Part shown: positions 1-23,439 of the stretch, in pieces | How the letters are laid out: every line of letters starts with the position of its first letter | How positions within the stretch are numbered: the stretch's first letter is position 1 | Virus record (IMG/VR): IMGVR_UViG_3300045988_013110 | Coordinates: 1 to 23,439 of that record | Source: a virus | Taxonomy: Duplodnaviria; Heunggongvirae; Uroviricota; Caudoviricetes | Strand: one strand, 5' to 3' | Length of the DNA stretch: 23,439 nucleotides | Notes under the pieces: model-generated | What the model saw: the letters and a program-made list of their open reading frames with translations, nothing else | Told to the model about the DNA's origin: nothing | Database searches by the model: none | Program-made: the position numbers and the translations under genes

Positions 1-57
1 TGGGAATGATTAACAGCTAACTCATAGCAACTCATTCCTATTCAGATACTAATTTAA

Positions 58-2996: not shown

Positions 2997-3914
2997 TTAC
3001 ATAGATGTTTCGTTTAATTCTTCCCGACGAACGCTGTAAACGTCGGTGGCTTTTGCCAGCAGTTCGTCATCATCTGAAAGTTTTTGTGCAATGTATTTGT
3101 AAGCCTTATCCAGTTCGGAGACAGTGCTGTAATTCATCGCTGCGCTGGTAAAGGCCATCAGCACTTCTTCTGGATCACGGCTATCCGCTTTACGCGTTTG
3201 CTCATCATGCTTTTTCACTGGTTTAGCGTTGATCAGACTGTTCATGCTGGATGCTGTGCCGTGCTTTGCCTGACTTCTTGGAGTTACGTCACGTTCAATA
3301 ATGTCAGGTGAGTCGATATATTTACCTTCCATTTCCTCAGCTGTGGCTTGTTGACCAATCTCCGGCCATGCTTTACGTAATGCCTGTGCCTCTGCGCATT
3401 TTGCCAACTGCGCATAAGGGCGCTTTTTCCACATGGCATTTGGTGCCGATGTGTCACGCCCCCCAGTTGCATAGTTCTCAATCCAGTATTCTTTGGCGCT
3501 AAACTCTACGATTTCCCCGCTTGCCATTCGCTTGCTGACGGTGTACTTACACCACTGAGGGAAGGTAACCTCCACGCCTGAAAGCGTTTGTGTTACATCT
3601 GGACCGAACTCAGGTTCATTAGCGCCTGCGTAATCGCCGGAACGGTAGGCCTGAATGCGATAAAGTCCAATGCCAGGCATGACCACGTCGCGCCATTCAT
3701 TCTTTCCACTCTTCGAGTCTTTAACACTCATTGGTACCAGGTGTACCGGCTTAAGAAGAGGATCGAGTTGACGCGCCCGGCAGTAATCGACTGCCATCAT
3801 TACCGATTCATCTTTTGCCCCAGGGTAAATACTGTTTTTCAGAGCGCTCCATGTAACTTCATCGATTCCCCGAATAGCCAACACATCATTGGTGATTGCA
3901 ATTTCGTTGCTCAT
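2997..3914 (-). CDS. RecT/Red-beta family single-strand annealing protein
   Basis: Segments HLVPMSVKDSKSGKNEW and AMWKKRPYAQLAKCAEAQALRKAWPE resemble the RecT family by recollection. ATG 3914 overlaps the exonuclease stop (ATGA). Confidence 0.8.
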   Translation of the reverse strand: MSNEIAITNDVLAIRGIDEVTWSALKNSIYPGAKDESVMMAVDYCRARQLDPLLKPVHLVPMSVKDSKSGKNEWRDVVMPGIGLYRIQAYRSGDYAGANEPEFGPDVTQTLSGVEVTFPQWCKYTVSKRMASGEIVEFSAKEYWIENYATGGRDTSAPNAMWKKRPYAQLAKCAEAQALRKAWPEIGQQATAEEMEGKYIDSPDIIERDVTPRSQAKHGTASSMNSLINAKPVKKHDEQTRKADSRDPEEVLMAFTSAAMNYSTVSELDKAYKYIAQKLSDDDELLAKATDVYSVRREELNETSM

Positions 3915-4732
3915 ACGTACATATCCTGTTTGCGTGCCCACTCAGGGCGTTTAATAATTTCCACGCCGCCCCATTCATCGCTGATGCGGCATTCGTGATA
4001 GGTATTCAGATCCCGGCGGAACAGAGCGTGCCCGGCATCGACATCCGGCGCATCCAGCCCGAACACGCGTACCGGATACCGACCACAATCAATGCTTTCG
4101 CTCACGGCAAGAAAGAAAAAACCATGCGGCTGACCAGTAACCCTCATTGCGCCTTCGCGGTACATTGCGTCCTGCACGTGGTAGCGGAATTCCTCGATGT
4201 GACGTGCAAAACGGTCCATATCTGCAACCTTTTTCACGTCGACGATCACGTTGTGCTCGTTCAGCCATTTGTCTGGACGAATTCGGCACAACTCACCCGT
4301 CTCTTCATCGTTCCAGTACATTGATGCTTCGCAGTAACCAGGTGCTTCCAGCATCCAGCGTGCCGCCGGGTGAGCCATTGCGCTATCACGCATCAGCTCC
4401 AGTTTCCGCCACTGCTCGGCATCAAGTACCGTAATCCCCATATCCGCTACATCACGAAGAAATGCTTCTTCGTCAGCTTTACCTTGTTTCGTCCGACGAT
4501 CGAACTTCGGTGAAACAATGAAGCGTTTGTCGAATTCTCCAGGCTCCAGAAGCAGACAGTGCAATGCGGTTCCCATATCCAGTGCAGACTTTTTCTCTTC
4601 GTCTTCTGGTGCTGCCTGAACCCATTTAAGAAGCGCCGGATTCTTGGCAACCATGTCCAGTTGCGACTTACTCACGCCGTCACCGGCGTGGTAGTCTTCG
4701 TTGCTGATGTCGAAATAAATTCCCGGTTTCAT
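3911..4732 (-). CDS. RecE-type recombination exonuclease (PD-(D/E)XK fold)
   Basis: N-terminal GIYFDISNEDYHAGDGVSKSQL and downstream acidic/Lys residues resemble the RecE C-terminal nuclease domain. Sits directly upstream of the annealase, as in RecET modules. Confidence 0.75.
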   Translation of the reverse strand: MKPGIYFDISNEDYHAGDGVSKSQLDMVAKNPALLKWVQAAPEDEEKKSALDMGTALHCLLLEPGEFDKRFIVSPKFDRRTKQGKADEEAFLRDVADMGITVLDAEQWRKLELMRDSAMAHPAARWMLEAPGYCEASMYWNDEETGELCRIRPDKWLNEHNVIVDVKKVADMDRFARHIEEFRYHVQDAMYREGAMRVTGQPHGFFFLAVSESIDCGRYPVRVFGLDAPDVDAGHALFRRDLNTYHECRISDEWGGVEIIKRPEWARKQDMYV

Positions 4733-6075: not shown

Positions 6076-6306
6076 ATGAGCGATAACGGACATTTCGATT
6101 TCAAAAAGCACTGGCTTGCACTTACTCCGGATGAGCGTGAAGCCTTCGCACAGGAAGCCGGAACGACGAGTCACTATATCCAGACTCACTTAACAGGTAA
6201 GCGCAAAATGCCAGGTAAGGTATTGATGAATGGGCTTTTTAAAGCCTGTAAAACAAGACAATGGCTGCGCTCAAAAGCAGAACTGGCATACTTCTTCTAC
6301 TCATGA
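6076..6306 (+). CDS. Cro-like HTH protein
   Basis: 76-aa ORF divergent from the repressor; HTH-like stretch TSHYIQTHLTGKRKMPGK; followed by a terminator. Confidence 0.55.
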   Translation: MSDNGHFDFKKHWLALTPDEREAFAQEAGTTSHYIQTHLTGKRKMPGKVLMNGLFKACKTRQWLRSKAELAYFFYS

Positions 6307-6673: not shown

Positions 6674-7507
6674 ATGAGCAGACATGCAACAGATTGGGCC
6701 TGGGAGACAGATCCAGGTAGCTCATCATTAAAGCTCATACTGCTCTCGATGGCTGACAGAGCCGATGAATATAACCTCTGCTACCCCAGCATAGAACGCC
6801 TCGTTAAAGACACTTGCCTGAATAAAAAAACCGTGCAGGCCGGGCTTATATCGCTCATGAAAATGGGGCTTATTTCAGATACCGGAGAGAGAAAGGGAGC
6901 GACAAAAAGAGTGCGGGTTTTCTCTCTTAATATAACCAAAAACGGGAACATTAAAGGCAACCTAGAAGGGTGTAATGAACCCGAAAACGGTAATGTTCCC
7001 GAAAACGGGAATATACCCAAAAACGGGATGTTGAATGATCCCAAAAACGGGATGTTGAATGATCCCAAAAACGGGATCCAGAACCAGTCATATAACCAGT
7101 CATTTAACCAAGAGAGGGAGAGCAGGACAAAAACCGGGGATTCTGTGCCTCATGACCCCGGCGCAAACAACGCCGTGATGAATAACTTTGTTCCTCCTGG
7201 TGGGCCAGGGCAATTAGGCAAATTTGTCATGCATGAACAATGGCAGCCATCAGATGACTTTCTTCGGAAAAGCTCATTGCAGGGAATCTACCTGGACAGT
7301 CTGCCAACGGCACAGGAACTTGCAGAGTTCAGAATTTACTGGATGGCTGAGGGTAAGGCATACCATCAGGCACAGTGGGAGCAGAAGCTGGCAAGGCGCA
7401 TCCAGTTCTGTAGACAGAAATCAGGTGAAGTCAGAAAGAGCCTTGACTGGCATAACACTGACTGGATAGATGAGGTGTGGGATGAAATCAACTCCAGAAC
7501 TTCTTAA
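6674..7507 (+). CDS. replication initiation protein (HTH N-terminus, DnaT-like C-terminus) with embedded iterons
   Basis: N-terminus (WAWETDPGSSSLKLILLSMADRADEYNLCYPSIERLVKDTC) resembles HTH domains of phage replication initiators; the C-terminal region looks DnaT-like. An iteron array lies inside the gene, as ori does in lambda O. Confidence 0.7.
   Translation: MSRHATDWAWETDPGSSSLKLILLSMADRADEYNLCYPSIERLVKDTCLNKKTVQAGLISLMKMGLISDTGERKGATKRVRVFSLNITKNGNIKGNLEGCNEPENGNVPENGNIPKNGMLNDPKNGMLNDPKNGIQNQSYNQSFNQERESRTKTGDSVPHDPGANNAVMNNFVPPGGPGQLGKFVMHEQWQPSDDFLRKSSLQGIYLDSLPTAQELAEFRIYWMAEGKAYHQAQWEQKLARRIQFCRQKSGEVRKSLDWHNTDWIDEVWDEINSRTS
6935..7104. repeat. iteron array, candidate origin of replication
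   Basis: Six copies of core CC(C/A)(G/A)AAAACGG(G/T) starting near 6936, 6980, 6998, 7016, 7040 and 7064 (spacing 18, 18, 24, 24 bp), then AACCAGTCAT twice (7082-7103). Confidence 0.6.
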
Positions 7508-8264
7508 TGAGTACGATCGCTTTCGTGGTGGGCATGACCACTCGACGGCGGTTGCTTCTGCTGACGATGAAAGGGCAAAGAAGGAGCAGGTTGCAAGAAT
7601 TTTCAACGAAATGTTTGTCCAGTTACAGGCTGCATTTCCAGGCAGCATCGCTGCTATCAGCGAGCAAGGAAAGCTAAACGAATTTCGAAAACAATGGATG
7701 CTTGCGTTTCTGGAGAATGGGATCACAACAATGGAACAGGTTAACGCTGGTATGCGCCACGCCCGCGCCAGTGAATCTCCGTTCTGGCCGTCGCCAGGGC
7801 AATTTATCAAGTGGTGCAAAGACAGCAAGATGGTTCTTGGCGTCACCATTGACGATGTGATGGCGGAGTTTCACCGGTACAGCAAGGAAAAAAGTTTATA
7901 TCCTGGTGGTCCCGAAAGATTCCCGTGGCGACATCCGGTTATGTACTGGGTCGTATGTGATACCCGCCGTGCAATGTATCAGCGCCAGCTTAGCGAGATT
8001 GAGGTTGAGAAACACGCGCGCAGGCTGCTCGATGATTGGGCGAAAAAGGTAGCTTCCGGACAGCAGATACCCGATCCGGTGATCAGCATACAGGCAAAGC
8101 GAGAGCCCATGAGTACACCTCCGGACACAGGGAGAGACGTTTACCATCCACCAGGGCGAAGTTTCGGGTGCATGCCTAACGCCGCCACCCTTGGGGGAAT
8201 AACACCGGCGCAGTGGCTGATGGAGGAATACAGGCGGGGAAAGGCGGCAGGATTTATCAAGTAA
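7482..8264 (+). CDS. replication protein P-like helicase loader
   Basis: KQWMLAFLENGITTMEQVNAGMRHARASESPFWPSPGQFIKWC matches, by recollection, the conserved core of lambda P. GAGG Shine-Dalgarno before ATG 7482; overlaps the initiator gene 3-prime end. Confidence 0.8.
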   Translation: MKSTPELLNEYDRFRGGHDHSTAVASADDERAKKEQVARIFNEMFVQLQAAFPGSIAAISEQGKLNEFRKQWMLAFLENGITTMEQVNAGMRHARASESPFWPSPGQFIKWCKDSKMVLGVTIDDVMAEFHRYSKEKSLYPGGPERFPWRHPVMYWVVCDTRRAMYQRQLSEIEVEKHARRLLDDWAKKVASGQQIPDPVISIQAKREPMSTPPDTGRDVYHPPGRSFGCMPNAATLGGITPAQWLMEEYRRGKAAGFIK

Positions 8265-8787: not shown

Positions 8788-9372
8788 ATGAAACCGAGTT
8801 ATGAAGAACTTGAAGAGCAACTGAACAGATCTCGACGTCTCTGTGATGCTGCTCTGGCTAATGAGCAGGCATGGGAAACAGCCATGATGCAGGCATGCGG
8901 TGAAGACGGTCCGAAGTCAGTAGCTGATAAGTTTGCGGAACTTGAAGCCAGATGCGCGGCGCTGGCGGCGGAGAGTGCGCTGGCTCGTAAAGCAGTTCAG
9001 GCATTTTGCGATGTTGTTGGCGACAGCACCGAGGTTATCTGCGAGGAGATTGGGCGAGATGGCGTTCTGGTTATTTTGGAGGCAATGAAGGCAACAGGAA
9101 ATATGTCAGCCACCGACGCTTTCCTGGCTGAAATACGTGCGGAGGCACGCAACGAGGGGATTAACTACACCGCAAGCCGTCTTGCTGCTGCGTTCAATCA
9201 CGGATTTATCAATAAGTCTTTGCGTGAAGTTTTCGACGTTACACGCATGATTTTGTCAGCGAAAGAAGAGTTGGCTAATGAACCGCATCCGATTGATGGC
9301 CTGTCCGGTGAATATGCGGAGAAATCCCTTGAAGAATGGGCGGAACAGATTCGCAAAGGAGGCAACCAGTGA
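8788..9372 (+). CDS. hypothetical protein
   Basis: 194-aa ORF with GAGGATAAAG Shine-Dalgarno; predicted helical/coiled-coil N-terminus. Confidence 0.5.
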   Translation: MKPSYEELEEQLNRSRRLCDAALANEQAWETAMMQACGEDGPKSVADKFAELEARCAALAAESALARKAVQAFCDVVGDSTEVICEEIGRDGVLVILEAMKATGNMSATDAFLAEIRAEARNEGINYTASRLAAAFNHGFINKSLREVFDVTRMILSAKEELANEPHPIDGLSGEYAEKSLEEWAEQIRKGGNQ

Positions 9373-9593
9373 GCGGAAAAAGAATGACTAACAGAGAGCT
9401 TGTCGATGCCGCGATTAAGCTTGCTGGTGATTTTTATTCAATGATGGGGTACACGCATCGCCCAGGCTTCAAATATTGGGAGTCTCCTCACCCGCAAGAG
9501 CAACTGGTATTTCAAATGGCCTGCCGTGCTTTTGAGGTTATTCGCGGTTCTGATGTGATGGACGCCGTTGCCGACTTGGAGGATGAAGAGTGA
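9369..9593 (+). CDS. hypothetical protein
   Basis: GTG start at 9369 overlaps the upstream stop (GTGA) and is preceded by AAGGAGG at a 6-nt spacing. Confidence 0.45.
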   Translation: MSGKRMTNRELVDAAIKLAGDFYSMMGYTHRPGFKYWESPHPQEQLVFQMACRAFEVIRGSDVMDAVADLEDEE

Positions 9594-9955
9594 GCGAGAT
9601 TGACTATCAGGCACTGCGTGAGGCGGCAGTAGCAATTGAAACAGTGGCAACGCCTCAAAAATTGCAGGCGTTTCGGATAAAGGTCACACCGTCGGTGGTA
9701 CTGGCGCTGCTGGATGAAATTAAGCGCCTGGAGGACACAAATATTGATGCTATGTGCCGAATTGCAGAACTGGAAGCGAGGGAAGTCGAGTTACCGGACG
9801 GCTACGAACCCCGTATGGGCCACCCAATAAATAGCGGTGAGCGGGTGGTAATGATGCCGCACCACTTTGGTGGATGGCTGGACCGCTTCGACGTCGAACA
9901 CGCATTGCAGGCAGCGGAGATCAAATTCAAAACAGCGGGGGGTGAGTACGAATGA
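9590..9955 (+). CDS. hypothetical protein, Ead/Ea22-like
   Basis: N-terminus MSEIDYQALREAAVAIE... resembles Ead/Ea22-like prophage proteins by recollection. Confidence 0.45.
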   Translation: MSEIDYQALREAAVAIETVATPQKLQAFRIKVTPSVVLALLDEIKRLEDTNIDAMCRIAELEAREVELPDGYEPRMGHPINSGERVVMMPHHFGGWLDRFDVEHALQAAEIKFKTAGGEYE

Positions 9956-10185
9956 TTGAGGGTATTAGCAATAAATCGTTGAACACAGCATGTGTCGACG
10001 GTGGGTTGTTGTACAAAGTGACGTTTACGCAAATCGACAACGAAGATAACGCATTCACTGTGATTTACACGTCGCCAGCGATGGCGCAGAAGTGGGTGGA
10101 TCTGCACAGGCTATGTGGTTTTCGTGTTGAGTGGGGGTGTTATGAGATGCGATGCAGATGGCATCATCGGGGGGATGAAAAATGA
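9952..10185 (+). CDS. hypothetical protein
   Basis: 77-aa ORF, start overlapping the upstream gene. Confidence 0.4.
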   Translation: MIEGISNKSLNTACVDGGLLYKVTFTQIDNEDNAFTVIYTSPAMAQKWVDLHRLCGFRVEWGCYEMRCRWHHRGDEK

Positions 10186-10559
10186 GCACTACGCTTGAGC
10201 AATGGCTGGAACAGCAGCACGGCAAAATTGATGTTGATTGCGGCTGTGTGAGCACTGAAACGCTTATGCACTGGATGCGTGTGGCGTATGAGGCTGGCAA
10301 CTCTCCGGTAACTCCGGAGAGTTGGATAAGCTGTAGTGAACGAATGCCAGAAATGGGAGAGCGACAATGCTATGTGTTAGCTGCTGACTTTAAAAACAAC
10401 TACCCACCAAGCATCCCCAACACTCAGGTCGGCGTATATGGCGACTGGTTTAATGATGGCAAGCCCACTTGGGATGACGGTGGTGGCGAAGACCTGTATC
10501 TCAAGGAGGTAACCCACTGGATGCCGCTGCCAGAACCGCCGGAGCAGGATGGTGAATGA
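10182..10559 (+). CDS. DUF551-like phage protein
   Basis: C-terminal THWMPLPEPP resembles the DUF551 family signature. Confidence 0.55.
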   Translation: MSTTLEQWLEQQHGKIDVDCGCVSTETLMHWMRVAYEAGNSPVTPESWISCSERMPEMGERQCYVLAADFKNNYPPSIPNTQVGVYGDWFNDGKPTWDDGGGEDLYLKEVTHWMPLPEPPEQDGE

Positions 10560-10983: not shown

Positions 10984-11032
10984 CATGTCACGAGTGGGTT
11001 ATGCATGATGAATTTGATGGGTTTTGAATACT

Positions 11033-11058
11033 GCCGCCAACTATGGCGGCTTTATTTT
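11033..11058 (+). terminator. rho-independent terminator upstream of the terminase genes
   Basis: Stem GCCGCC / GGCGGC with loop AACTAT, followed by TTTATTTT. Confidence 0.65.
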
Positions 11059-11066
11059 GCATGGTA

Positions 11067-11102
11067 CTATTACCACAACGGTAACTATTACCACGGTGGT
11101 TA
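11067..11102. promoter_or_regulatory. operator-like sites and direct repeat at the packaging-operon entry
   Basis: Perfect TTACC-ACAAC-GGTAA (11070-11084) and imperfect TTACC-ACGGT-GGTTA (11088-11102), within a 10-bp direct repeat CTATTACCAC (11067-11076 and 11085-11094), immediately before the TerS start codon. Confidence 0.45.
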
Positions 11103-11701
11103 TGATGCCTGCTGAACCTAAAACCTATAAACGCAAATCAACGCAATTTAAGCCACTAACAGCAATGCAGGAGGCTTATTGCCAGTCATACATCAAAACG
11201 CCTGAAAACCAGACTCAGGCTGCGATTAATGCAGGATTCTCCCCAAATACAGCGGCAGTTAAAGCCAGTGTCATGATGCGCGATGAACGCATTCAGAAAC
11301 GGATTGCCGAGTTGATGGAGGAGCGCAACAAACGAATGCGCGTCAGTGCTGATTACGTTCTCATGCGCCTGGTGGAGATCGACCAGATGGACGTGATTGA
11401 CATTCTCAACGACGATATGAGCATCAAGCCGGTCTCGGAATGGCCTAAGGTCTGGCGGCAGTACCTGACAGGTTTCGAACTGGCCGACATGTTCGAAGGC
11501 CGTGGAGACGAGAAAGAGCTGGTTGGCATCCTCAAAAAAATTAAATGGCCTGACAAGGTGAAGAACCTCGAACTGATTGGTAAGCACGTCGACGTCAACG
11601 CATTCAAAGAACGCCTGGATGTTAATGTGAATGTGACAATTGCTGATCGCATAGCGGCAGCCAGGAAGAGACTGAAAGAACGTCAGGATGGCAATCAGTG
11701 A
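11102..11701 (+). CDS. terminase small subunit
   Basis: Start set at ATG 11102 because the track start at 11024 is a TTG lying upstream of the terminator. HTH-like segment LTAMQEAYCQSYIKTPENQTQAAINAGFSPNTAAVKAS is typical of small terminase subunits. Confidence 0.8.
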   Translation: MMPAEPKTYKRKSTQFKPLTAMQEAYCQSYIKTPENQTQAAINAGFSPNTAAVKASVMMRDERIQKRIAELMEERNKRMRVSADYVLMRLVEIDQMDVIDILNDDMSIKPVSEWPKVWRQYLTGFELADMFEGRGDEKELVGILKKIKWPDKVKNLELIGKHVDVNAFKERLDVNVNVTIADRIAAARKRLKERQDGNQ

Positions 11702-13173
11702 CAGATACAGCGTTATCTCCTGAAGAGCAGTTAATCGAGGATATTGCAGGGTTCACTCACGATCCGCTTGGCTATGCCCTCTATGCGTTCCCATGGGGGG
11801 AAGAGGGGACTGAACTGGCACATGCCACCGGCCCACGTCAGTGGCAGGCTGATGCGTTCCGAGAGATACGTGATCACCTGCAGAATCCAGAGACGCGATA
11901 TCAGCCGCTTATGCTGGCACGTGCTTCTGGTCACGGTATTGGTAAATCCGCATTCATCTCAATGCTGATCAACTGGGGCATGTCCACTTGCGAGGATTGT
12001 AAGGTCGTGGTGACCGCCAACACCGACAACCAGCTACGAACGAAGACCTGGCCGGAAATTATCAAGTGGTCAAACCTTGCTATCACGAAAGACTGGTTTA
12101 CCTGTACCGCTACCGCGATGTACAGCAATGACCCTGGGCACGACAAGCGGTGGCGAGCTGACGCAATCCCCTGGTCTGAGCACAACACTGAGGCATTCGC
12201 CGGACTACACAACGAGCGTAAACGCATCATTGTGGTATTTGATGAAGCGTCGAACATTGCGGATCTGGTGTGGGAAGTTGCCGAGGGTGCGCTAACGGAC
12301 GAAGACACTGAGATTATCTGGGTGGCTTTCGGAAACCCTACACGTAACACCGGGCGTTTCCGTGAATGTTTCCGCAAATACAAACACCGCTGGAAAACTG
12401 CGCAGATTGACAGCAGGACGGTGGAAGGCACCAACAAACAGCAGTTGCAGAAATGGGTTGATGACTACGGGGAAGATAGCGACTTCGTTAAAATCCGTGT
12501 GCGTGGCATATTCCCTGATGCATCTGAATTGCAGTTTATCCCTACCGGTCTTACTGACGAGGCAATGAAACGGGTGGTAACCGCTGCGCAGGTTGCACAT
12601 GCTCCGGTGATAATCGGTGTTGACCCGGCATATTCAGGCGTTGATGACGCGGTGATATACCTGCGGCAGGGGCTACACAGTAAGGTGCTGTGGACTGGCA
12701 ACAAGACTACCGACGATCTGATTATGGCGAAGCGTATCGCTGACTTTGAAGACCAGTATCAGGCTGACGCGGTGTTCATCGACTTCGGTTACGGAACCGG
12801 TTTGAAGTCAATCGGTGACGGCTGGGGTCGTACATGGCAACTTGTTCCGTTCGGTGGCGCGTCTACTGACCCGCAGATGCTCAACAAGCGTGGGGAGATG
12901 TTCAACTCATGCAAGACATGGCTGAGGCTGGGCGGCATGCTGGATGACCAGGAAACAGCGGACGACCTGTCGGCGGCAGAGTACAAAGTTCGAGTGGACG
13001 GTAAAATCGTTATCGAACCGAAGGAAGATATCAAGGAGCGGCTTGGGCGTTCGCCGGGTAAAGGCGATGCGCTACTGCTGACGTTTGCTTTCCCGGTCTC
13101 GAAACGCATAAATATACCAGGACAGCAAAGCCAGCAGGGAAGGGCCATTACAGATTACGATCCCTATGCTTAA
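11698..13173 (+). CDS. terminase large subunit
   Basis: 491 aa; Walker A-like GHGIGKS; GTG start overlapping the TerS stop (GTGA). Confidence 0.9.
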   Translation: MTDTALSPEEQLIEDIAGFTHDPLGYALYAFPWGEEGTELAHATGPRQWQADAFREIRDHLQNPETRYQPLMLARASGHGIGKSAFISMLINWGMSTCEDCKVVVTANTDNQLRTKTWPEIIKWSNLAITKDWFTCTATAMYSNDPGHDKRWRADAIPWSEHNTEAFAGLHNERKRIIVVFDEASNIADLVWEVAEGALTDEDTEIIWVAFGNPTRNTGRFRECFRKYKHRWKTAQIDSRTVEGTNKQQLQKWVDDYGEDSDFVKIRVRGIFPDASELQFIPTGLTDEAMKRVVTAAQVAHAPVIIGVDPAYSGVDDAVIYLRQGLHSKVLWTGNKTTDDLIMAKRIADFEDQYQADAVFIDFGYGTGLKSIGDGWGRTWQLVPFGGASTDPQMLNKRGEMFNSCKTWLRLGGMLDDQETADDLSAAEYKVRVDGKIVIEPKEDIKERLGRSPGKGDALLLTFAFPVSKRINIPGQQSQQGRAITDYDPYA

Positions 13174-13250: not shown

Positions 13251-13258
13251 TTAAATAA

Positions 13259-13739: not shown

Positions 13740-13816
13740 GAACTGGAAGCAATGAGTTATGCCTTCCGTGGCTGTACTGGTTTACAGCATGAAGCCATCG
13801 CAATGGCGTCCTGCTG

Positions 13817-13902: not shown

Positions 13903-13979
13903 TGGCGTGGCATGCAGGATTCGAACCTGCGACCAACCGCTTAGAAGGCGGTTGCTCTGTCCAACTGAGCTAATGCCAC
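13903..13979 (-). tRNA. tRNA-Arg (anticodon UCU)
   Basis: Hand-folded 77-nt cloverleaf with CCA: acceptor GTGGCAT/ATGCCAC, D-arm GCTC-AGTTGGACA-GAGC, anticodon stem ACCGC/GCGGT with loop CTTCTAA (anticodon TCT), T-arm GCAGG-TTCGAAT-CCTGC, discriminator G. Confidence 0.85.
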
Positions 13980-14627: not shown

Positions 14628-16307
14628 ATGGCGGAAACAACTAAAGAGCGATTGAACAAACAGTTCGCACAACTTGAAAGCGAGCGTCAGTCGTTCGAGC
14701 CGCACTGGCGCGAGTTGAGTGATTACATCAACCCGCGTGGTTCCCGCTTTCTGACTTCTGAGGTTAACCGTAACGATCGACGCAATACACGCATTATTGA
14801 TTCGACCGGGACTATGGCGGCGCGCACTCTCGCCAGCGGCATGATGTCAGGCATCACAAGCCCCGCGCGTCCGTGGTTTCGCCTGGCTACGCCAGATCCT
14901 GAAATGATGGATTATGGCCCTGTTAAGTTGTGGCTTGAGGCGGTGCAGAACCGCATGAACGATATGTTCAATAAGTCGAATCTCTATCAGTCGCTGCCGC
15001 AGTTATACGGAAGCCTCGGCACATACAGCACTGGTGCAATGGCAGTGCTGGAGGATGACGAGGACATCATTCGCACAATGCCATTCCCGATAGGCAGTTA
15101 CTACCTGGCTAACTCACCTCGTGGCAGTGTGGACACCTGTTTTCGCAAGTTCTCTATGACTGTTCGTCAGCTTGTTCAGGAGTTCGGGCTAAATAACGTC
15201 AGCGAATCCGTAAAAAGCATGTGGGAAAGCGGAACCTACGAGAAGTGGATTGAAGTGATGCATTCGGTTTACCCGAACATTGACCGCGATACATCGAAGC
15301 TGGATAGCAAGAACAAGCCATTCAAATCGGTTTATTACGAGGTTGGTGGCGATAACGACAAGTTGTTGCGTGAGTCCGGATTCGATGAGTTTCCAATTAT
15401 GGCTCCGCGCTGGGAAGTTAACGGCGAAGATGTTTATGGATCATCATGCCCGGGTATGCTGGCGCTTGGACCTGTTAAGGCATTGCAGCTTCTCCAGAAG
15501 CGCAAGTCGCAGTTGATTGATAAAGCCACCAATCCGCCGATGGTTGCTCCGAATTCCCTCAAGAATCAGCGTGCCTCCCTTCTTCCTGGCGACATCACGT
15601 ATATCGATCAGATTACTGGTCAGGATGGTTTCAGGCCTGCTTATCTGGTTAACCCCAGTACAGCAGATTTGGTGGCAGACATTCAGGACACCCGTCAAAT
15701 CATTAACAGCGCCTACTTTGTCGATCTGTTCATGATGTTGCAGAACATCAATACCCGCTCGATGCCTGTTGAAGCGGTGATCGAAATGAAAGAAGAAAAA
15801 CTTCTGATGTTGGGGCCGGTTCTGGAGCGTCTGAACGACGAATGTCTTAATCCTCTCATTGACCGCGCTTTCTCGATGATGGTGCGTAAAAACATGCTGC
15901 CGCCACCGCCTGACGCGATGGAAGGTATGCCCCTGAAGGTCGAATACATTTCCGTCATGGCTCAGGCGCAGAAGTCTATCGGCCTGTCCAGTCTGGCGTC
16001 TACGGTCAACTTCATTGGTCAACTTGCGCAAGCGAAACCAGAAGCTCTCGACAAACTCAACGTTGATCAGGCGATCGATGCATTCGCTGATATGTCCGGA
16101 GTGTCTCCAACCGTCATTGTTCCGCAGGAACAGGTTGAGCAGGCTCGCCAGCAACGGGCACAGCAACAACAGCAGCAACAAATGATGGCGATGGGGATGG
16201 CGGCGGCACAGGGTGCCAAGACGCTAAGCGAAGCTAAAACTTCGGATCCGAGTGTTTTGTCAGCTATGGCGAATGCAGTTAGTGGTCAGGGTGGGCAATC
16301 ACAATGA
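14628..16307 (+). CDS. portal / head-to-tail connector (podovirus, T7 gp8-like)
   Basis: 559 aa. N-terminus and Gln/Ala/Met-rich C-terminus (QQQQQQQMMAMGMAAAQGA...) resemble the T7 connector by recollection. Confidence 0.8.
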   Translation: MAETTKERLNKQFAQLESERQSFEPHWRELSDYINPRGSRFLTSEVNRNDRRNTRIIDSTGTMAARTLASGMMSGITSPARPWFRLATPDPEMMDYGPVKLWLEAVQNRMNDMFNKSNLYQSLPQLYGSLGTYSTGAMAVLEDDEDIIRTMPFPIGSYYLANSPRGSVDTCFRKFSMTVRQLVQEFGLNNVSESVKSMWESGTYEKWIEVMHSVYPNIDRDTSKLDSKNKPFKSVYYEVGGDNDKLLRESGFDEFPIMAPRWEVNGEDVYGSSCPGMLALGPVKALQLLQKRKSQLIDKATNPPMVAPNSLKNQRASLLPGDITYIDQITGQDGFRPAYLVNPSTADLVADIQDTRQIINSAYFVDLFMMLQNINTRSMPVEAVIEMKEEKLLMLGPVLERLNDECLNPLIDRAFSMMVRKNMLPPPPDAMEGMPLKVEYISVMAQAQKSIGLSSLASTVNFIGQLAQAKPEALDKLNVDQAIDAFADMSGVSPTVIVPQEQVEQARQQRAQQQQQQQMMAMGMAAAQGAKTLSEAKTSDPSVLSAMANAVSGQGGQSQ

Positions 16308-16600
16308 CAGATTACGAAGACGATCAACTGAAAGAAGAAAACGCCCGTAAGCAACGTGACATGGCGCAGCGTGAAATTGATGACATTCGCTTTGTCATGA
16401 GCAGTGAACAGGGGCGTCGCGTTGTCTGGTCGGTGCTGGAGAAAGGCCGTGTGTTTTCCGCTATCTCACCGATGGACGCTATGGCAATGGCATTTAATGA
16501 GGGGCAACGCAATCTGGCGCTGGAACTGTTTCAGCGCGTTATGGCGCATTGCCCTGAACAGTATTTGAAGATGGCCAAAGAGGCCAGTGAACAGGAGTGA
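16304..16600 (+). CDS. hypothetical head-assembly-region protein
   Basis: 98 aa; start overlaps the portal stop (ATGA). Confidence 0.45.
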   Translation: MTDYEDDQLKEENARKQRDMAQREIDDIRFVMSSEQGRRVVWSVLEKGRVFSAISPMDAMAMAFNEGQRNLALELFQRVMAHCPEQYLKMAKEASEQE

Positions 16601-16602
16601 TC

Positions 16603-17298
16603 ATGAATTTATTTGAGCGTTTGCTGTATCGCCGTCTTTGCAATGAGCAACCAGTCGATGGTGGAGCAGCTCCGGCTGCGTCAGAACCGTCAGCGCCTGC
16701 AGGTGATAACCCTGCTCCAGTTGGTGATCCATCACAACAGGAAGGTGATAAGCCACAACCTGTTGCTGATGGCGATAAACCTGCTGATGACAAAAAGCCT
16801 GAAAACGATAAGCAGGATGAAAAAAAGGACGGCGATAAACCAGAGGGTGCGCCTGAAAAGTACGAGTTTCAGGCTGCCGAAGGCGTAGAGCTGGATACAG
16901 AAGCGTTGAAGGAATTCGAGCCGGTGGCGCGAGAACTAAACCTGACCAACGAGCAAGCGCAAAAGCTGGTTGATGCTTATCCGAAGATTCTGGCAGGTGT
17001 TCAGCAGCGCCAGGCAGAAGCCTGGCAGAAAACAACCGAGCAGTGGGCAGCGGATGTAAAAGCCGACAAAGAAATCGGTGGCGACAAGTTGATTTCTAAC
17101 CTTAGCGCCGCACAGCGTGCGCTTGACCAGTTCGGGACACCTGAACTCAAAGAATATCTGAACACCACCGGGCTGGGTAATCACCCTGATCTGGTCAAAA
17201 CGTTCGTGAAAATCGGAAAGGCGATGTCTGAAGATGGCATGGTCACCGGTGGTAATGAAGGCCAGTGTAGTGCGGCCGAAGTGCTCTATGGCAAATAA
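16603..17298 (+). CDS. putative scaffolding protein
   Basis: Acidic, Pro/Asp/Lys-rich low-complexity N-terminus and helical C-terminus; sits between portal and capsid genes. AGGAG Shine-Dalgarno before ATG 16603. Confidence 0.55.
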   Translation: MNLFERLLYRRLCNEQPVDGGAAPAASEPSAPAGDNPAPVGDPSQQEGDKPQPVADGDKPADDKKPENDKQDEKKDGDKPEGAPEKYEFQAAEGVELDTEALKEFEPVARELNLTNEQAQKLVDAYPKILAGVQQRQAEAWQKTTEQWAADVKADKEIGGDKLISNLSAAQRALDQFGTPELKEYLNTTGLGNHPDLVKTFVKIGKAMSEDGMVTGGNEGQCSAAEVLYGK

Positions 17299-17312
17299 GA
17301 GAGGAAATGACA

Positions 17313-18299
17313 ATGGCTGTTAAAGGCTTAACTGCGCTAACGCTGGCTGACTGGGGTAAGCGCGTCGATCCAAACGGGAAAGTCGATAAGATTATCGAGC
17401 TTCTCGGTCAAACTAACCCGATCCTTCAGGATATGCCTTTTGTCGAAGGGAACCTTCCTACCGGACACCGAACCACCATTCGTTCTGGTTTACCTTCAGC
17501 TACCTGGCGTTTGCTGAACTATGGCGTACAGCCAAGCAAATCAACCACAGTGCAGGTAACCGATTCCGTTGGCATGCTGGAAACCTATGCTGAAGTCGAT
17601 AAGTCACTGGCTGATCTGAACGGCAATACCGCTGAATTCCGCCTGTCTGAAGACCGCGCATTTATTGAAGCGATGAATCAGCAGATGGCGCAGACGCTGT
17701 TTTATGGTGATTCCAGCGTTAACCCTCAGCAGTTTATGGGACTGTCCTCCCGCTATTCCAGCCTGTCTGCGGGTAATGCTCAGAACATCATTGATGCTGG
17801 TGGCACGGGTACAGATAACACCTCAATCTGGTTAGTGGTGTGGGGCGAAAACACCGTGCATGGCATCTTCCCGAAAGGGAAGAAGGCTGGCATCCAGATG
17901 GAAGATAAAGGCCAGGTGACACTGGAAGATGCTAATGGCGGCAAGTACGAAGGTTATCGCACCCATTACAAATGGGACAACGGACTTGCTCTGCGTGACT
18001 GGCGTTATGTTGTTCGCATTGCAAACATCGATGTCAGCAATCTTTCAGAACCATCCTCTGCCGCAAATATTGCCAAGTTGATGGTTAAGGCACTGCATCG
18101 CATTCCAAACCGTGGCATGGGCCGCCCGGTGTTCTACATGAACCGCACTGTAGGCCAGGCTCTTGATCTGCAATCTCTGGAGAAAACATCTCTGGCTATC
18201 AGCGTAAAAGAGACTGAAGGCGAGTGGTGGACTTCATTCCGTGGTGTACCAATCCGTGAAACTGATGCGCTTCTGGAAACAGAAGCCCGCGTGGTGTAA
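17313..18299 (+). CDS. major capsid protein
   Basis: About 328 aa after the scaffold gene; AGAGGA Shine-Dalgarno 8 nt before ATG 17313; a stable hairpin and a terminator follow the capsid block. Confidence 0.65.
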   Translation: MAVKGLTALTLADWGKRVDPNGKVDKIIELLGQTNPILQDMPFVEGNLPTGHRTTIRSGLPSATWRLLNYGVQPSKSTTVQVTDSVGMLETYAEVDKSLADLNGNTAEFRLSEDRAFIEAMNQQMAQTLFYGDSSVNPQQFMGLSSRYSSLSAGNAQNIIDAGGTGTDNTSIWLVVWGENTVHGIFPKGKKAGIQMEDKGQVTLEDANGGKYEGYRTHYKWDNGLALRDWRYVVRIANIDVSNLSEPSSAANIAKLMVKALHRIPNRGMGRPVFYMNRTVGQALDLQSLEKTSLAISVKETEGEWWTSFRGVPIRETDALLETEARVV

Positions 18300-18350
18300 C
18301 GCCTGTTATTAACCTGTGGGTCGTAACAGACCCACTAATGGAGAAAGAAG

Positions 18351-18788
18351 ATGATCACCGACAAACTGTTGATGTTCTCCGAAGCTCAGGCGGTTACGAA
18401 TACCGCGGCTTCTACTGACGTAATCGATCTCGGTCCAATTGACGGAAAACGTCGTGATATCGGCGTGGGTTACCCGCTTGAGTTTTGGGCGCTGGTTAAC
18501 GCAGCCGCCGCGGCAAGCGGTGATGCAACTGTAAACATCCAGTTGCAGACGAGTGAGAATAACAGCTCATGGACCACTATTTATGATAGTGGCGCACTGG
18601 CAAAGACCGCCCTGACAGCAGGTAAACGAGTTGTTTCTGCAAAGGTGCCTGCCGGTGTTCAGCGATATCTGCGTGTTAACTACTCCGTCGCAACTGGCCC
18701 ACTAACGGCTGGCAAATTCACTGCGGGTATCAGTCTGGATGTTGATGCCAATACGCCGTACCCGATCCGCTCAAAAGTAACTGGTTAA
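18351..18788 (+). CDS. hypothetical virion protein (possible capsid decoration protein)
   Basis: 145 aa, Ala/Thr/Val-rich; assignment by position only. Confidence 0.4.
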   Translation: MITDKLLMFSEAQAVTNTAASTDVIDLGPIDGKRRDIGVGYPLEFWALVNAAAAASGDATVNIQLQTSENNSSWTTIYDSGALAKTALTAGKRVVSAKVPAGVQRYLRVNYSVATGPLTAGKFTAGISLDVDANTPYPIRSKVTG

Positions 18789-18798
18789 GGTGATATCG

Positions 18799-19134
18799 AT
18801 GTCAGGTGAGAAACCAAGATACCGCGTTCTGCGCCTCTCTCATATCCATAACACTCTGTGGCCGGAGGGGGCAGAAATCGAATACGAAGGTGAGCCTGGT
18901 AGCGCACTGGAACCTGTTAACGATGCAGCCAGACAGGCAAAAGCAAAAGTTGCAGGAAAGGTGTCAATGGCAGCAACCAGCACCAAAATCATCAACGATA
19001 TGTCAGATGATGGTGAACTGGATAAGCTCCGTGAAGAGTACGAATTGCTCTTTAACGAGAAGCCACACCATAACGCCAAAGCAGAAACGCTACGCGAGAA
19101 GATCGCAGATAAGCGTAAAGAACTGGGCGTGTAA
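18799..19134 (+). CDS. hypothetical protein
   Basis: AGGTGA Shine-Dalgarno 6 nt before ATG 18799; followed by a terminator. Confidence 0.45.
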   Translation: MSGEKPRYRVLRLSHIHNTLWPEGAEIEYEGEPGSALEPVNDAARQAKAKVAGKVSMAATSTKIINDMSDDGELDKLREEYELLFNEKPHHNAKAETLREKIADKRKELGV

Positions 19135-19150
19135 GCCTCGCGAATCAGAC

Positions 19151-19172
19151 AAGGGGCTTCGGCCCCTTTATT
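19151..19172 (+). terminator. rho-independent terminator after the capsid block
   Basis: Stem AAGGGGC / GCCCCTT with TTCG tetraloop, followed by TATT. Confidence 0.55.
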
Positions 19173-19190
19173 GCAGGAGTATAGAAACTT

Positions 19191-19796
19191 ATGGCCTCTG
19201 TAGTAGAGATCTGCAATCGTGCGCTGTCCAATATTGGCAACAGCCGCAGTATTAACAGCCTGACGGAAGCCAGCAAGGAAGCAGGGGAATGTTCGCTGCA
19301 CTTTGAGGCCTGCCGTGATGCTGTGCTTTCTGATTTTGACTGGAACTTTGCTACCAAACGCGTGGCGCTTGCAGATACGAGCAATCCACCGCCTGACTGG
19401 GAATATGCGTACCAGTACCCGTCCGATTGTCTGCGCATTACTGAAATTATGCTTCCTGGTGTACGCAATCCAACAGCAGCAATGCGCGTTCAGTACGAAG
19501 TTGGTGCAGACACCAACGGAACAGGAAAGTTGATCTACACAGACCAGCCGCAGGCATGGCTCAAGTATGTATCTCGCGTTTCAGATGTAAACATGTTTGA
19601 TGCCATTTTTATGGAGGCGCTGGCCTGGCGTCTTGCGGCAGCCATTAACATGGCGCTGACTGGGAATGCGGATCTCGGTACATTTGCTCTCAATATGTAC
19701 AATCGCGTGATTCTTAGTGCTGGCTCGCATAGCCAGAATGAATCACAGGAACCACAGCCACCGGTTGACGAGTTTACCATTGCGAGGTTGTCCTGA
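19191..19796 (+). CDS. tail tubular protein A-like (T7 gp11-like)
   Basis: 201 aa; N-terminal pattern VVEICNRALSNIGNSRSINSL is similar to the gp11 N-terminus by recollection; size and position before the gp12-like gene fit. Confidence 0.55.
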   Translation: MASVVEICNRALSNIGNSRSINSLTEASKEAGECSLHFEACRDAVLSDFDWNFATKRVALADTSNPPPDWEYAYQYPSDCLRITEIMLPGVRNPTAAMRVQYEVGADTNGTGKLIYTDQPQAWLKYVSRVSDVNMFDAIFMEALAWRLAAAINMALTGNADLGTFALNMYNRVILSAGSHSQNESQEPQPPVDEFTIARLS

Positions 19797-22267
19797 TGGC
19801 TATCAGTTGGATCCAGCCCAGCTTTGCCGGTGGTGAGATTGGACCGTCGTTGTACGGGCGTATTGACATGGCGAAGTACCAGGTGGCATTGCGCAAGTGC
19901 GATAACTTTATCGTGCGGCAGTATGGCGGCGTTGAGAATCGACCAGGTACGCGTTTTGTCGGTGCCGCCAAATACCCAAATCGGAAATGCCGCCTGATCC
20001 CGTTCCAGTTCTCGACGGTTCAGACCTATGCTCTGGAGTTCGGACACCAGTACATGCGCGTTATCAAAGATGGTGCGTTGGTGCTGAACAGCAGCAATGT
20101 TATTTATGAAATTGCCACGCCATATACTGAAGCCGATCTGTTCCGAATTAAATTCACGCAAAGCGCCGACGTGCTTACGCTTGTTCATCCGGCATACCCG
20201 CCGAAAGAGTTGCGTCGCTATGCGCATGACAACTGGCAACTGGTTGATGTGGTAACGAAGAACGGACCATTTGAAGATATCAATATTGACGAGTCAGTGA
20301 CGGTTTATGCCAGCGCCAGCACCGGGACAATTACGTTAACGGCAAGCGCCTCTATTTTTGGCGCGGAGCAGGTAGGCAAATTGTTCTATCTGGAACAGCC
20401 TGCAGTGGATTCTGTGCCGGTATGGGAAACCAGTAAGAGTACGTCAATTGGCGATATTCGCCGTGCAGACAGTAACTACTATCGCGCCGTTACAGTAGGC
20501 AAAACAGGCACTTTGCGCCCTTCGCATACAGAAGGCACATCATGGGATGGCTGGGGCGGATCCGGTGATGATGATACCGGCATTGAGTGGGAGTATCTGC
20601 ACAGTGGTTTTGGCATTGCCCGTATCTCTGCTGCAAATGGAACTACTGCAACTGCCGAGGTGATTTCCTATATCCCTTCGCAGGTAGTTGGCGAGGATAA
20701 TGCCAGCTATAAATGGGCTAAATATGCCTGGAACAGTGTTAATGGTTATCCTGGCACTGTTGTTTATTATCAACAACGTCTTTACTTCGCCGCATCGACT
20801 GCGTTTCCTCAGACTATCTGGGCCAGCCGTACCGGGGATTATAAGGATTTTGGCAAAAGCAATCCTACGCAGGATGACGACAGAATTATCTACACCTATG
20901 CCGGGCGTCAGGTTAATGAGATCCGCCACCTGATTGATGTTGGTTCGCTGGTGGCGCTGACTTCCGGAGGTGAGTACGTCATCACTGGCGACCAGAACAA
21001 AGTGCTTACCCCATCATCATTTGCATTCAGCTCTCAGGGATCAAATGGCTCGAGCAATGTCCCACCAATTGCCGTGGCGAATATTGCTCTGTTCGTCCAG
21101 GAGAAAGGCAGTGTTGTCCGTGATCTGGCCTACTCATTCGATGTTGACGGCTATCAGGGGAACGACCTTACTATCCTTGCCAATCATCTTTTTCAGAAGC
21201 ACAGCATTGTTGACTGGTGCTTCTCAATAGTCCCTTACTCCAGCGCCTTCTGCATCCGTGATGACGGTAAATTACTGGTGATGACCTATTTGCGTGATCA
21301 GCAGGTTTTTGCATGGGCACCACAATCCAGTACCGGAAAATATGAAAGCACATGCAGTATCAGCGAAGGCAATGAAGATGCGGTGTATTTCGTCGTTAAC
21401 CGAACCGTTAACGGGCAAACAGTGAGATACATCGAGCGACTGTCCAGCCGTTTATTTACCAGCGATGAAGATGCTTTCTTTGTTGATTCTGGCCTTAGCT
21501 ATGATGGAAGAAATACGTCTGACAGAACGATGATCATCACTGGTGGTTCTGGCGAATGGGATTACCGCGCGGAATATACAATCAGTGTTTCTGGTGGTGC
21601 GTACTTCACCAGTAGTGATGTCGGCGCGCAACTACAGTTCCCTTATACCGGAACTGATCCTGATACTGGCGATGAGGTGTCAAAAGAATTACGTTGCGAC
21701 ATTATTTCTGTAACCAGCAATACCGCTGTAGTGGTTCGTGCTAACAGGAACGTCCCGCCATCCCTCAGGAATGTGGCCACCACGAACTGGCAGATGGCGC
21801 GCCGGACATTTGGAGGCCTGTCTCATCTTGAAGGCCAGACCGTAAACATTCTCTCTGATGCGAACGTGGAACCACAGAAAGTTGTTTCCGGAGGTGCCGT
21901 CACGCTGGAATCTCCGGGGGCTGTTGTGCACATCGGCCTGCCAATAACTGCTGAATTCGAAACACTGGATATCAACATTAACGGACAGGAAACGCTGCTG
22001 GACAAAAAACAGGTGATCCCCTCCGTTACTCTGGTTGTGAATGCCAGTCGCGGCATCTGGGCGACTACGCCCGGCGGCAAATGGTACGAATATCCACAGC
22101 GTGAATTCGAGTTCTACGATGATCCTGTTGATGATGCTACCGGAAAAGTAGAAGTGAAACTGGACAGTAACTGGGGCAAAAACGGACGTGTAAAAATCCG
22201 TCAGCTTGATCCGTTGCCGCTGTCTGTTCTTGCCGTTATTCCTCGCCTTACTGTTGGTGGGTTCTGA
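19796..22267 (+). CDS. tail tubular protein B-like (T7 gp12-like)
   Basis: 823 aa; N-terminal ISWIQPSFAGGEIGPSLYGRI...GVENRPGTRFV resembles gp12 by recollection; start overlaps the upstream stop (TGATG). Confidence 0.6.
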   Translation: MAISWIQPSFAGGEIGPSLYGRIDMAKYQVALRKCDNFIVRQYGGVENRPGTRFVGAAKYPNRKCRLIPFQFSTVQTYALEFGHQYMRVIKDGALVLNSSNVIYEIATPYTEADLFRIKFTQSADVLTLVHPAYPPKELRRYAHDNWQLVDVVTKNGPFEDINIDESVTVYASASTGTITLTASASIFGAEQVGKLFYLEQPAVDSVPVWETSKSTSIGDIRRADSNYYRAVTVGKTGTLRPSHTEGTSWDGWGGSGDDDTGIEWEYLHSGFGIARISAANGTTATAEVISYIPSQVVGEDNASYKWAKYAWNSVNGYPGTVVYYQQRLYFAASTAFPQTIWASRTGDYKDFGKSNPTQDDDRIIYTYAGRQVNEIRHLIDVGSLVALTSGGEYVITGDQNKVLTPSSFAFSSQGSNGSSNVPPIAVANIALFVQEKGSVVRDLAYSFDVDGYQGNDLTILANHLFQKHSIVDWCFSIVPYSSAFCIRDDGKLLVMTYLRDQQVFAWAPQSSTGKYESTCSISEGNEDAVYFVVNRTVNGQTVRYIERLSSRLFTSDEDAFFVDSGLSYDGRNTSDRTMIITGGSGEWDYRAEYTISVSGGAYFTSSDVGAQLQFPYTGTDPDTGDEVSKELRCDIISVTSNTAVVVRANRNVPPSLRNVATTNWQMARRTFGGLSHLEGQTVNILSDANVEPQKVVSGGAVTLESPGAVVHIGLPITAEFETLDININGQETLLDKKQVIPSVTLVVNASRGIWATTPGGKWYEYPQREFEFYDDPVDDATGKVEVKLDSNWGKNGRVKIRQLDPLPLSVLAVIPRLTVGGF

Positions 22268-22731: not shown

Positions 22732-23276
22732 TGTGCGATCCGGTTATTGCTGGTGGCGCAATGCTCGCCATGAGTGGCATTCAGGCATACACCCAGTACC
22801 AACAGGGAAAGTATGCCTCGAAGGTTGCAGAAGCGAACGCAGATATAGCCACAGCTCAGGCAAATGATGCAATAAACAGAGGTAACGCTGAAGCTGAGCA
22901 ACGGCGCAGAGAGACCCGACAGCGGCTTGGTACACAGGCGGCGACAATGGGGGCTACCGGCGCTGATTTATCTACAGGTAACGCGCTGGATATATTTGGT
23001 GACACTGCTCAGTTCGGCGCTCTTGATTCGCTGACGACGGTGAATAACGCGCAACGCGAGGCTTACGGTTATCAGGTTCAGGCTGCCAACTATAAAGCAG
23101 AAGCCAGTTCAGCCCGTAAACAGGGGAATGTGGGAGCAGCAACAACATTGCTCACTGCGCCTCTGAAGGCATACGGTGCGTACCAGATGTTTGGTGGGAC
23201 GTGGAGTCCGTTTACTCAAAGCACTCCTGCGCCAATCGGGGCAGCAGCAGGAACCAGATTACCCGGAGGATTATAA
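22731..23276 (+). CDS. putative internal virion / ejection protein
   Basis: 181 aa, Ala/Gln/Gly-rich with a hydrophobic N-terminal stretch; GGAGAG Shine-Dalgarno. Assignment by position and composition. Confidence 0.4.
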   Translation: MCDPVIAGGAMLAMSGIQAYTQYQQGKYASKVAEANADIATAQANDAINRGNAEAEQRRRETRQRLGTQAATMGATGADLSTGNALDIFGDTAQFGALDSLTTVNNAQREAYGYQVQAANYKAEASSARKQGNVGAATTLLTAPLKAYGAYQMFGGTWSPFTQSTPAPIGAAAGTRLPGGL

Positions 23277-23439
23277 TGCCAGTCGTACCAACAGTATCCG
23301 GACGCCAGGTGCAAAGTCGTGGTGTGCAAACCGGTGGTTTTCAGACCTTCGATGTTCCTCAAGCAGGTCAGGTGCTGGCGAATGTCGCAGATCAGTATGC
23401 GGTGGCATATGGTGAAGCCAGGCAGAAAGCGAATGTTGC
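23276..23439 (+). CDS. partial CDS (N-terminal fragment) of the next virion protein
   Basis: ATG 23276 overlaps the upstream stop (TAATG), preceded by GGAGGA; open frame MPVVPTVSGRQVQSRGVQTGGF... runs off the window end. Confidence 0.5.
   Translation, partial: MPVVPTVSGRQVQSRGVQTGGFQTFDVPQAGQVLANVADQYAVAYGEARQKANV

Follow-up and report, generated by a model that had tools for sequence, protein, structure and literature searches.

A Uetakevirus-type temperate podovirus of Escherichia coli: lambdoid-like early genes, a tail of T7-type fold and the empty slot of a capsid staple gene

Here we describe the genes carried by a 23,439-nucleotide stretch of tailed-phage DNA (Caudoviricetes; IMG/VR record IMGVR_UViG_3300045988_013110), hereafter called the window, which belongs to an element comparable with the temperate phages phiV10 and epsilon15. 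The left end holds part of an attachment (att) site and an integrase gene, followed by recombination, immunity, replication and accessory genes. Packaging genes come next. From position 14628 onward, the six-frame list of open reading frames (ORFs) reveals a tight operon on one strand that continues until the window stops and encodes portal, head, tail and ejection proteins (Table 1). A first-pass annotation, made from the sequence alone, had read this arrangement as a lambdoid early region joined to a T7-like podovirus virion module, and had likened the mosaic to those of epsilon15-like temperate podoviruses.

Table 1. Features of the window, with the evidence for each (aa, amino acids; HTH, helix-turn-helix).
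Feature	Coordinates	Strand	Evidence
att core, last 11 nt of attgagTGGGAATGATT	1..11	+	sequence reading; core from PMC9782041
Tyrosine integrase, P4-type architecture	202..1452	+	Pfam Arm-DNA-bind_3, Phage_int_M, Phage_integrase; PHROG 1
MT-A70 adenine DNA methyltransferase	1647..2309	-	PF05063; PADLOC MTase_II E 4.5e-77
RecT single-strand annealing protein	2997..3941	-	PF03837 E 1e-28; PHROG 2449
RecE-type nuclease (exonuclease VIII C-terminal, PDDEXK)	3911..4732	-	PHROG 412 E 1.4e-125; PF12684
Prophage repressor, two HTH domains, 194 aa	5337..5921	-	HTH_3/HTH_26; PHROG 8
cro-like small regulator, divergent from repressor	6076..6306	+	PHROG 35 E 5.6e-13
Replication initiator, HTH_36 + DnaT DNA-binding domain	6674..7507	+	Pfam; PHROG 1032
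Lambda P-type helicase loader	7470..8264	+	PF06992 E 4e-53
Variable accessory genes (Ead/Ea22-like, DUF551, others)	8788..10559	+	family scans; DNA comparison
Terminase small subunit	11024..11701	+	PF03592, PHROG 51; 89% to epsilon15
Terminase large subunit	11698..13173	+	PHROG 2; 94% to epsilon15
tRNA-Arg (anticodon TCT), terminase-portal gap	13903..13979	-	ARAGORN; also in TL-2011b
Portal (head-to-tail connector), T7 gp8 family, 559 aa	14628..16307	+	PF12236 Head-tail_con E 2.4e-187; PDB 8ck0_A E 6e-179
Bbp19-like protein (BPP-1 type), 98 aa	16304..16600	+	PF25181; PHROG
epsilon15 gp6-like 'protease'/scaffold-position protein, 233 aa	16597..17298	+	PHROG
Major capsid protein, epsilon15 gp7/BPP-1 family, HK97 fold, 330 aa	17307..18299	+	PF20911 E 3e-149; NCBIfam MCP_gp7_epsi_15
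Bbp16-family capsid cement/decoration protein, 145 aa	18351..18788	+	PF21190 E 3.5e-47
epsilon15 gp9-like small protein, 114 aa	18790..19134	+	99% identical to PhiV10p12
56-nt spacer with GC hairpin, slot of 324-bp gp10 'capsid staple' gene in relatives	19135..19190	+	comparison with relatives
Tail adaptor (epsilon15 gp11; T7 gp11/tail tubular A fold), 201 aa	19191..19796	+	PHROG 394 'tail protein' E 8e-87
Tail nozzle (epsilon15 gp12; T7 gp12/tail tubular B fold), 823 aa	19796..22267	+	PHROG 376 'tail protein', 1195 bits
IVP-A-like internal virion (ejection) protein, 154 aa	22267..22731	+	PHROG 308 'internal virion protein'
T7_gp14-family internal virion (ejection) protein, 181 aa	22731..23276	+	PF24072, 31.2 bits vs cut-off 27, E 2.5e-7
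epsilon15 gp15-like large virion protein, start only, off window end	23276..23439	+	translation; position matches PAS61 25430-28237

By megablast against phage genomes, the window has 97-98% DNA identity, across 82-86% of its length, to phiv142-3, vB_EcoP_PAS61, TL-2011b, vB_EcoP_ZX5 and HEMP4; for phiv142-3 and PAS61 the values are 97.6-97.7% with 86% covered, figures that refer to the 23.4-kb window compared and not to whole genomes. The ICTV guideline for a genus is about 70% genome-wide nucleotide similarity, and the records of PAS61, phiV10 and epsilon15 are all filed under the genus Uetakevirus. Comparison with epsilon15-like podoviruses, as proposed with the first-pass annotation, finds the whole window collinear at 97-98% with phiv142-3, PAS61, TL-2011b, ZX5 and phiV10, each closely related to epsilon15, and this collinearity with the same phages holds for the early as well as the late half (phiV10, for example, spans both). 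The packaging and structural half is 97.5% identical to phiV10 and 78% to epsilon15, and its 12 proteins are 90-100% identical to those of phiV10, all at least 97% except the small terminase subunit (terS). Moreover, the epsilon15-type order terS-terL-gp3-portal-gp5-gp6-MCP-gp8-gp9-gp11-gp12-gp13-gp14-gp15 (MCP, major capsid protein) is complete in the window except for gp10, with protein identities to epsilon15 that range from 36 to 94% over the structural gene set. A prophage that spans 80% or more of the window is present in 440 of the 5,426 complete E. coli genomes.

Altogether, there is very little doubt that the window represents the left part, ~23.4 kb, of a temperate E. coli podovirus with a genome of ~39 kb that belongs to Uetakevirus (epsilon15/phiV10 type). 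The comparison with epsilon15-like temperate podoviruses made in the first-pass annotation was borne out and was, indeed, too cautious, the window itself being a member. The element is of a known and very common E. coli prophage type. Some observations weigh against this assignment: no identical record was found in the collections, the best having 99.1% identity across 89% of the window; the window shows only some 60% of the genome, so that the tailspike, the lysis genes and the anti-repressor cannot be confirmed for the present copy; and the gp10 staple gene is cleanly absent between the gp9-like gene and the adaptor gene.

phiV10 and its kin (phiv142-3, PAS61, TL-2011b and ZX5) have a gene order identical to that of the window from att site and integrase to the ejection proteins, structural proteins that are 97-100% identical, the same att core and the same type of repressor. 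The window differs from them in the missing gp10, in other small accessory genes at about 9400-10630, in another cargo segment at about 13230-13770 and in a partly distinct RecT region. The Salmonella phage epsilon15, the type species of Uetakevirus, shares the module order, a DNA match in the integrase/methylase region and proteins at 94% (terL), 89% (terS), 88% (nozzle), 85% (adaptor) and 81% (portal) identity; it differs in possessing gp10 and in a divergent head shell (MCP 43%, Bbp16-like protein 36%, gp9-like protein 40%). The head-shell cassettes of the E. coli and Salmonella members are therefore different: the segment 17307-19134 stands at 36-43% to epsilon15 and the portal, adaptor and nozzle around it at 81-88%, a pattern which suggests that the cassette was swapped within the genus.

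The window opens with 11 bases, tgggaatgatt, that close the att core attgagtgggaatgatt and lie 190 nt upstream of the integrase, the host flank being outside the window. The same core has been reported for phiV10, epsilon15 and ZX5, where it precedes the integrase by 190 bp and the bacterial attachment site is at the 3′ end of guaA; ZX5 integrates at guaA (PMC9782041). A search for the complete 17-nt core across the window found none, because the window begins inside it; the left edge is therefore either the prophage end or the phage attachment site. As for the integrase, previously described as P4-type, this label holds: the arm-binding domain PF13356 (Arm-DNA-bind_3/DUF4102; E 4e-20), the central domain PF22022 and the catalytic domain PF00589 were all detected with Pfam, and the score against NCBIfam PRK09692 was 149 bits, under the full-length cut-off of 434.

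The missing gp10 raises the question of whether the present copy is functional. In phiV10, PAS61, TL-2011b and ZX5, a 324-bp gene lies between gp9 and gp11; it corresponds to PhiV10p13, the homologue of epsilon15 gp10, and is labelled 'capsid staple protein' in RefSeq. A move of the gene to another place in the window was considered and rejected, all tblastn matches having E>1. The exact gp10-less junction is found in EC.W1-9 (PP445227), a sewage isolate recorded as a complete genome, where one unbroken alignment of 201 nt has 99% identity; EC.W1-9 has the structural module in common with the window and differs in the early region, which matches only from about 6495 on. In E. coli genomes, the flanks of gp10 were detected in 517 and the gene itself in 433, and 8 of 60 rows in an evenly spaced sample carried the single-piece junction. 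The staple-less share of related E. coli prophages is thus about 13-16%, or an estimated 70-84 genomes.

The clean absence of gp10, together with the position of the right ~40% of the element outside the window, would be compatible with a defective or decaying prophage that yields no stable particles, for instance through loss of the staple gene or of genes beyond the window. We consider this improbable, given that the genes examined are all full-length, intact ORFs of phiV10 length, that the gp10-less junction recurs in EC.W1-9 and in the estimated 70-84 E. coli genomes, and that gp10 of epsilon15 is, according to a review, expendable for maturation and infectivity (PMC7602432).

The early region is where the comparison with lambda has to be qualified. 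The RecET-type recombination genes of the first-pass annotation are recovered as RecT (PF03837) and a RecE-type nuclease (PHROG 412/PF12684). In turn, the immunity region is lambda-like in its layout, i.e., a repressor and a divergent cro-like gene, but not in the type of repressor. The Pfam scan of the latter gave HTH domains only and no match to Peptidase_S24, the LexA-type autocleavage domain; HTH_3/HTH_26 covers residues 104-147, and residues 21-61 yield a further, weak HTH-like match. A repressor of identical sequence is shared by ZX5, phiV10, phiv142-3 and O157 typing phage 10 (the copy in the window stands outside that comparison); in ZX5 it was shown to block lytic growth, and control of the switch by the repressor and a separate anti-repressor was shown by overexpression (PMC9782041). 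The lack of the LexA/S24 domain points to anti-repressor-mediated rather than lambda-style induction and, by analogy with ZX5, induction would probably proceed through an anti-repressor and not by CI self-cleavage. The term 'lambda-like immunity' should not be read here as an SOS-cleavable CI.

A similar distinction applies to the replication genes, also described earlier as lambda-like. The helicase loader is a homologue of lambda P (PF06992, E 4e-53), whereas the initiator is HTH_36/DnaT-like, with weak matches only to O-like PHROGs, and is not of the lambda O family.

These lambdoid-type functions, and the 104 records of Shiga toxin (Stx)-converting phages that share DNA with the window, could be taken to indicate a new or recent recombinant, outside any established genus, formed by fusion of the early region of a lambdoid phage with a T7-like virion module. 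The chance of this is very small. The DNA shared with lambdoid phages does not extend beyond short patches at 8941-10670, chiefly in Ead/Ea22-like and DUF551 genes, which are 87-96% identical to Stx1- and Stx2-converting lambdoid phages; the idea is rejected on account of this limited sharing. Moreover, both halves are collinear with phiV10 and the other known relatives at 97-98%, and epsilon15 has the same architecture. As judged by DNA comparison, the patches at 8941-10670 are the only apparent recent lambdoid exchange in the window, and the backbone from integrase to replication genes has DNA-level matches to uetakeviruses only. What looks like a join is therefore an architecture that is old and common to the genus, with small recent exchanges only, and a lambdoid early region followed by a T7-type tail is the normal, long-fixed layout of Uetakevirus rather than a new mosaic.

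Other small genes accompany this backbone. PADLOC, run on ten accessory ORFs, recognized the methyltransferase only and no defence system. The variable cargo slot at about 13230-13770, which differs from PAS61, holds a 115-aa ORF (13259-13606, minus strand) with repeated 'TMSGDV/NI' motifs; it belongs to PHROG 3163, of unassigned function, has no match in Pfam or PADLOC, and a note on its phiV10 counterpart records similarity to Sf6 gene 66. As for the tRNA-Arg gene, its conservation accounts for 64 matches to Synechococcus phages, which cover the tRNA only.

Let us now turn to the genes that link the element to T7. The connector, tail tubular A-like and tail tubular B-like proteins of the first-pass annotation correspond exactly to the ORFs 14628-16307, 19191-19796 and 19796-22267, i.e., to portal, adaptor and nozzle, the limits of the annotated region (14628-22267) being the first base of the portal gene and the last of the nozzle gene. 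The sizes agree as claimed (559, 201 and 823 aa, against 536, 196 and 794 aa in T7), and so does the gene order: portal, scaffold/protease, capsid, adaptor, nozzle, IVP-A-like and T7_gp14-family proteins follow one another as genes 8 to 14 do in T7. The portal scores 623.7 bits with PF12236, a model that gives 379.4 bits to T7 gp8 itself. Among sequences in the PDB, the nozzle matches the 'Tail Nozzle' 8ck1_A (E 6e-217) and the adaptor the 'Connector Protein' 8ck1_E (E 3e-26), both from Carin-1, a marine podovirus of Cobetia marina; the nozzle and adaptor of the Legionella phage LME-1 are matched as well. Carin-1 and LME-1 have T7-like tail complexes (PMC12407071), the identity of 8ck0 and 8ck1 being taken from Foldseek descriptions and from the same paper. 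The ejection-protein genes also gave a sub-threshold Pfam hint of Phage_T7_Gp13 (E 0.09).

By sequence, the adaptor and the nozzle are not gp11- and gp12-like. The T7-derived models PF17212 (Tube) and PF25675 (Phage_nozzle) of Pfam, which give T7's own proteins 231 and 1275 bits, do not match the adaptor or the nozzle even at E<=10. BLASTP of the adaptor and nozzle against T7 gp11 and gp12 was negative, and pairwise BLASTP of the portal against T7 gp8 gave nothing significant. With hhalign, a 24-sequence adaptor profile found nothing in T7 gp11, probably for want of depth in the profile (Neff 2.1), and a 29-sequence nozzle profile was marginal against T7 gp12 (E 3.5e-4, probability 37%). The marginal alignment joins residues 207-439 of the window's protein to residues 257-466 of T7 and overlaps the central domain of the published epsilon15/T7 similarity, and comparison of hidden Markov models (HMMs) between the epsilon15 and T7 groups had given E<1e-10 for gp12, along with syntenic homologues of the internal virion proteins IVP-A and IVP-B (PMC4819975). 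When the family profiles were run against PDB sequences, the adaptor retrieved Carin-1 and LME-1 only; the nozzle additionally reached one more solved structure, a 'nozzle gp13' (E 8e-6), and T7 was not matched. The profile-HMM check advised in the first-pass annotation was consequently successful for the connector (PF12236) and negative for the gp11 and gp12 models, Tube and Phage_nozzle.

The AlphaFold model of the adaptor (pLDDT 81, pTM 0.71) retrieves with Foldseek 8ck1_E (E 8e-16), T7 gp11 (7box_M, E 2e-6, TM 0.57) and KP32 TTPA (5mu4), and further the adaptors of PhiM1, P-SCSP1u, A4 and HRP29. The model of the nozzle (pLDDT 88.8, pTM 0.85) retrieves T7 gp12 (7ey9_s, E 1.9e-24, TM 0.52), also as 6r21_a, 9jyz_P and 7boy_s, together with the nozzles of Kp9, HRP29 and P-SCSP1u. 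On these models, adaptor and nozzle are clearly related to T7 gp11 and gp12 at the level of the fold and, as the T7 Pfam models miss them, their link to T7 lies at that level only. Assignment to siphovirus or myovirus tail families, named beforehand as the contrary outcome, did not occur, the top Foldseek matches all being podovirus adaptors and nozzles.

There is next to no probability that the tail proteins come instead from a P22-like, siphovirus or myovirus system: the terminase does lie upstream of the portal as in P22 and lambda, P22 gp10 is a distant fold match to the nozzle (E 9e-9), and a weak PHROG 'major tail protein' match exists (E 3e-4, though for the Bbp16-like cement protein), but the top 23 adaptor and top 17 nozzle matches are full-length adaptor and nozzle chains of T7 and other short-tailed phages, P22 gp10 ranks lower and covers part of the nozzle model only (TMq 0.30), and siphovirus, myovirus and gene transfer agent neck proteins appear only at E>=0.03 in Foldseek. 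The E-values behind the tail and early gene assignments are far beyond chance.

No Pfam or NCBIfam model covers the adaptor and the nozzle (19191-22267), and NCBIfam likewise has none for the portal. The nozzle family is nevertheless large, with 18,304 cluster representatives at E<=0.001. Since current T7-derived Pfam models miss these proteins, annotation pipelines usually label them 'hypothetical'. A separate observation concerns the portal of PAS61 (OQ921333), where positions 15937-18144 contain a 538-bp tandem duplication within the gene relative to the window, segment 14846-15383 of which is matched twice; the annotated 'connector' is 735 aa long. Either the duplication is genuine in PAS61 or it may have arisen in assembly.

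The earlier proposal of a T7-type particle thus stands for the portal family, the adaptor and nozzle folds and the gp14 family, and not for the capsid, which is of the epsilon15/BPP-1 type. In particular, the capsid protein stands nearer to its counterpart in Bordetella phage BPP-1 (3j4u_A, E 1e-128), gp7 of epsilon15 (3j40_A, E 3e-85) being the more distant, and the cement protein matches Bbp16, with the 'cementing protein' 3j4u_H (E 4e-26) and the decoration protein 8cjz_B as its matches in the PDB. The pair of genes at 16304-17298 corresponds to PHROG 528 and PHROG 458. Carin-1 resembles the window in the decoration protein and in the whole set of portal, adaptor and nozzle (8ck0/8ck1; E 6e-179 for the portal), with Foldseek alignment identities of 32% for the adaptor and 44% for the nozzle; both BPP-1 and Carin-1 differ from the window in their hosts and early regions. 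Hardies et al. grouped the terminase and capsid of epsilon15 with siphovirus lineages and reserved kinship with T7 for the tail and ejection proteins (PMC4819975), a division with which the present results agree.

Compared with T7, then, the element shares the portal family, the folds of adaptor and nozzle, similar sizes and order, and a gp14-family ejection protein; it differs in the absence of any sequence-level match for gp11 or gp12, in the capsid lineage, in a terminase placed upstream of the portal and in its temperate lifestyle. It is not a member of the Autographiviridae, since scans of ~30 of its ORFs in the window with PHROGs or Pfam gave no match to any family of RNA polymerases and since an integrase and a repressor are present. 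The nozzle is the only ORF in the window above 600 aa.

From the characterised relatives, the following working can be proposed. The integrase would bring the phage DNA into the chromosome at the 3′ end of guaA, and the two-HTH repressor would keep the prophage silent, with relief probably by a phage anti-repressor and not by RecA-driven self-cleavage. The terminase would fill an HK97-fold capsid (epsilon15 gp7/BPP-1 type) through the T7-gp8-family portal, the short tail would be built from 12 copies of the gp11-like adaptor and six of the gp12-like nozzle protein, and the ejected internal virion proteins would bridge the cell envelope. A short tail has been reported for ZX5 (PMC9782041).

The genus has been described since the 2000s, cryo-electron microscopy structures of relatives exist, and hundreds of copies are present in sequenced E. 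coli. Within it, we tentatively suggest, as a possibility that falls a little short of an even chance, that the window represents a natural sub-lineage of E. coli uetakeviruses (the 13-16% of prophages and EC.W1-9) that cleanly lost gp10 while keeping a BPP-1-type capsid and a Bbp16-type cement protein. As the cement protein is retained, the staple may be redundant. If this were true, phiV10-type heads would normally carry two independent decoration systems, and the staple would be redundant wherever the cement protein is present. The staple-less variant provides a natural comparison for the respective contributions of gp10 and the Bbp16-type protein to capsid stability.

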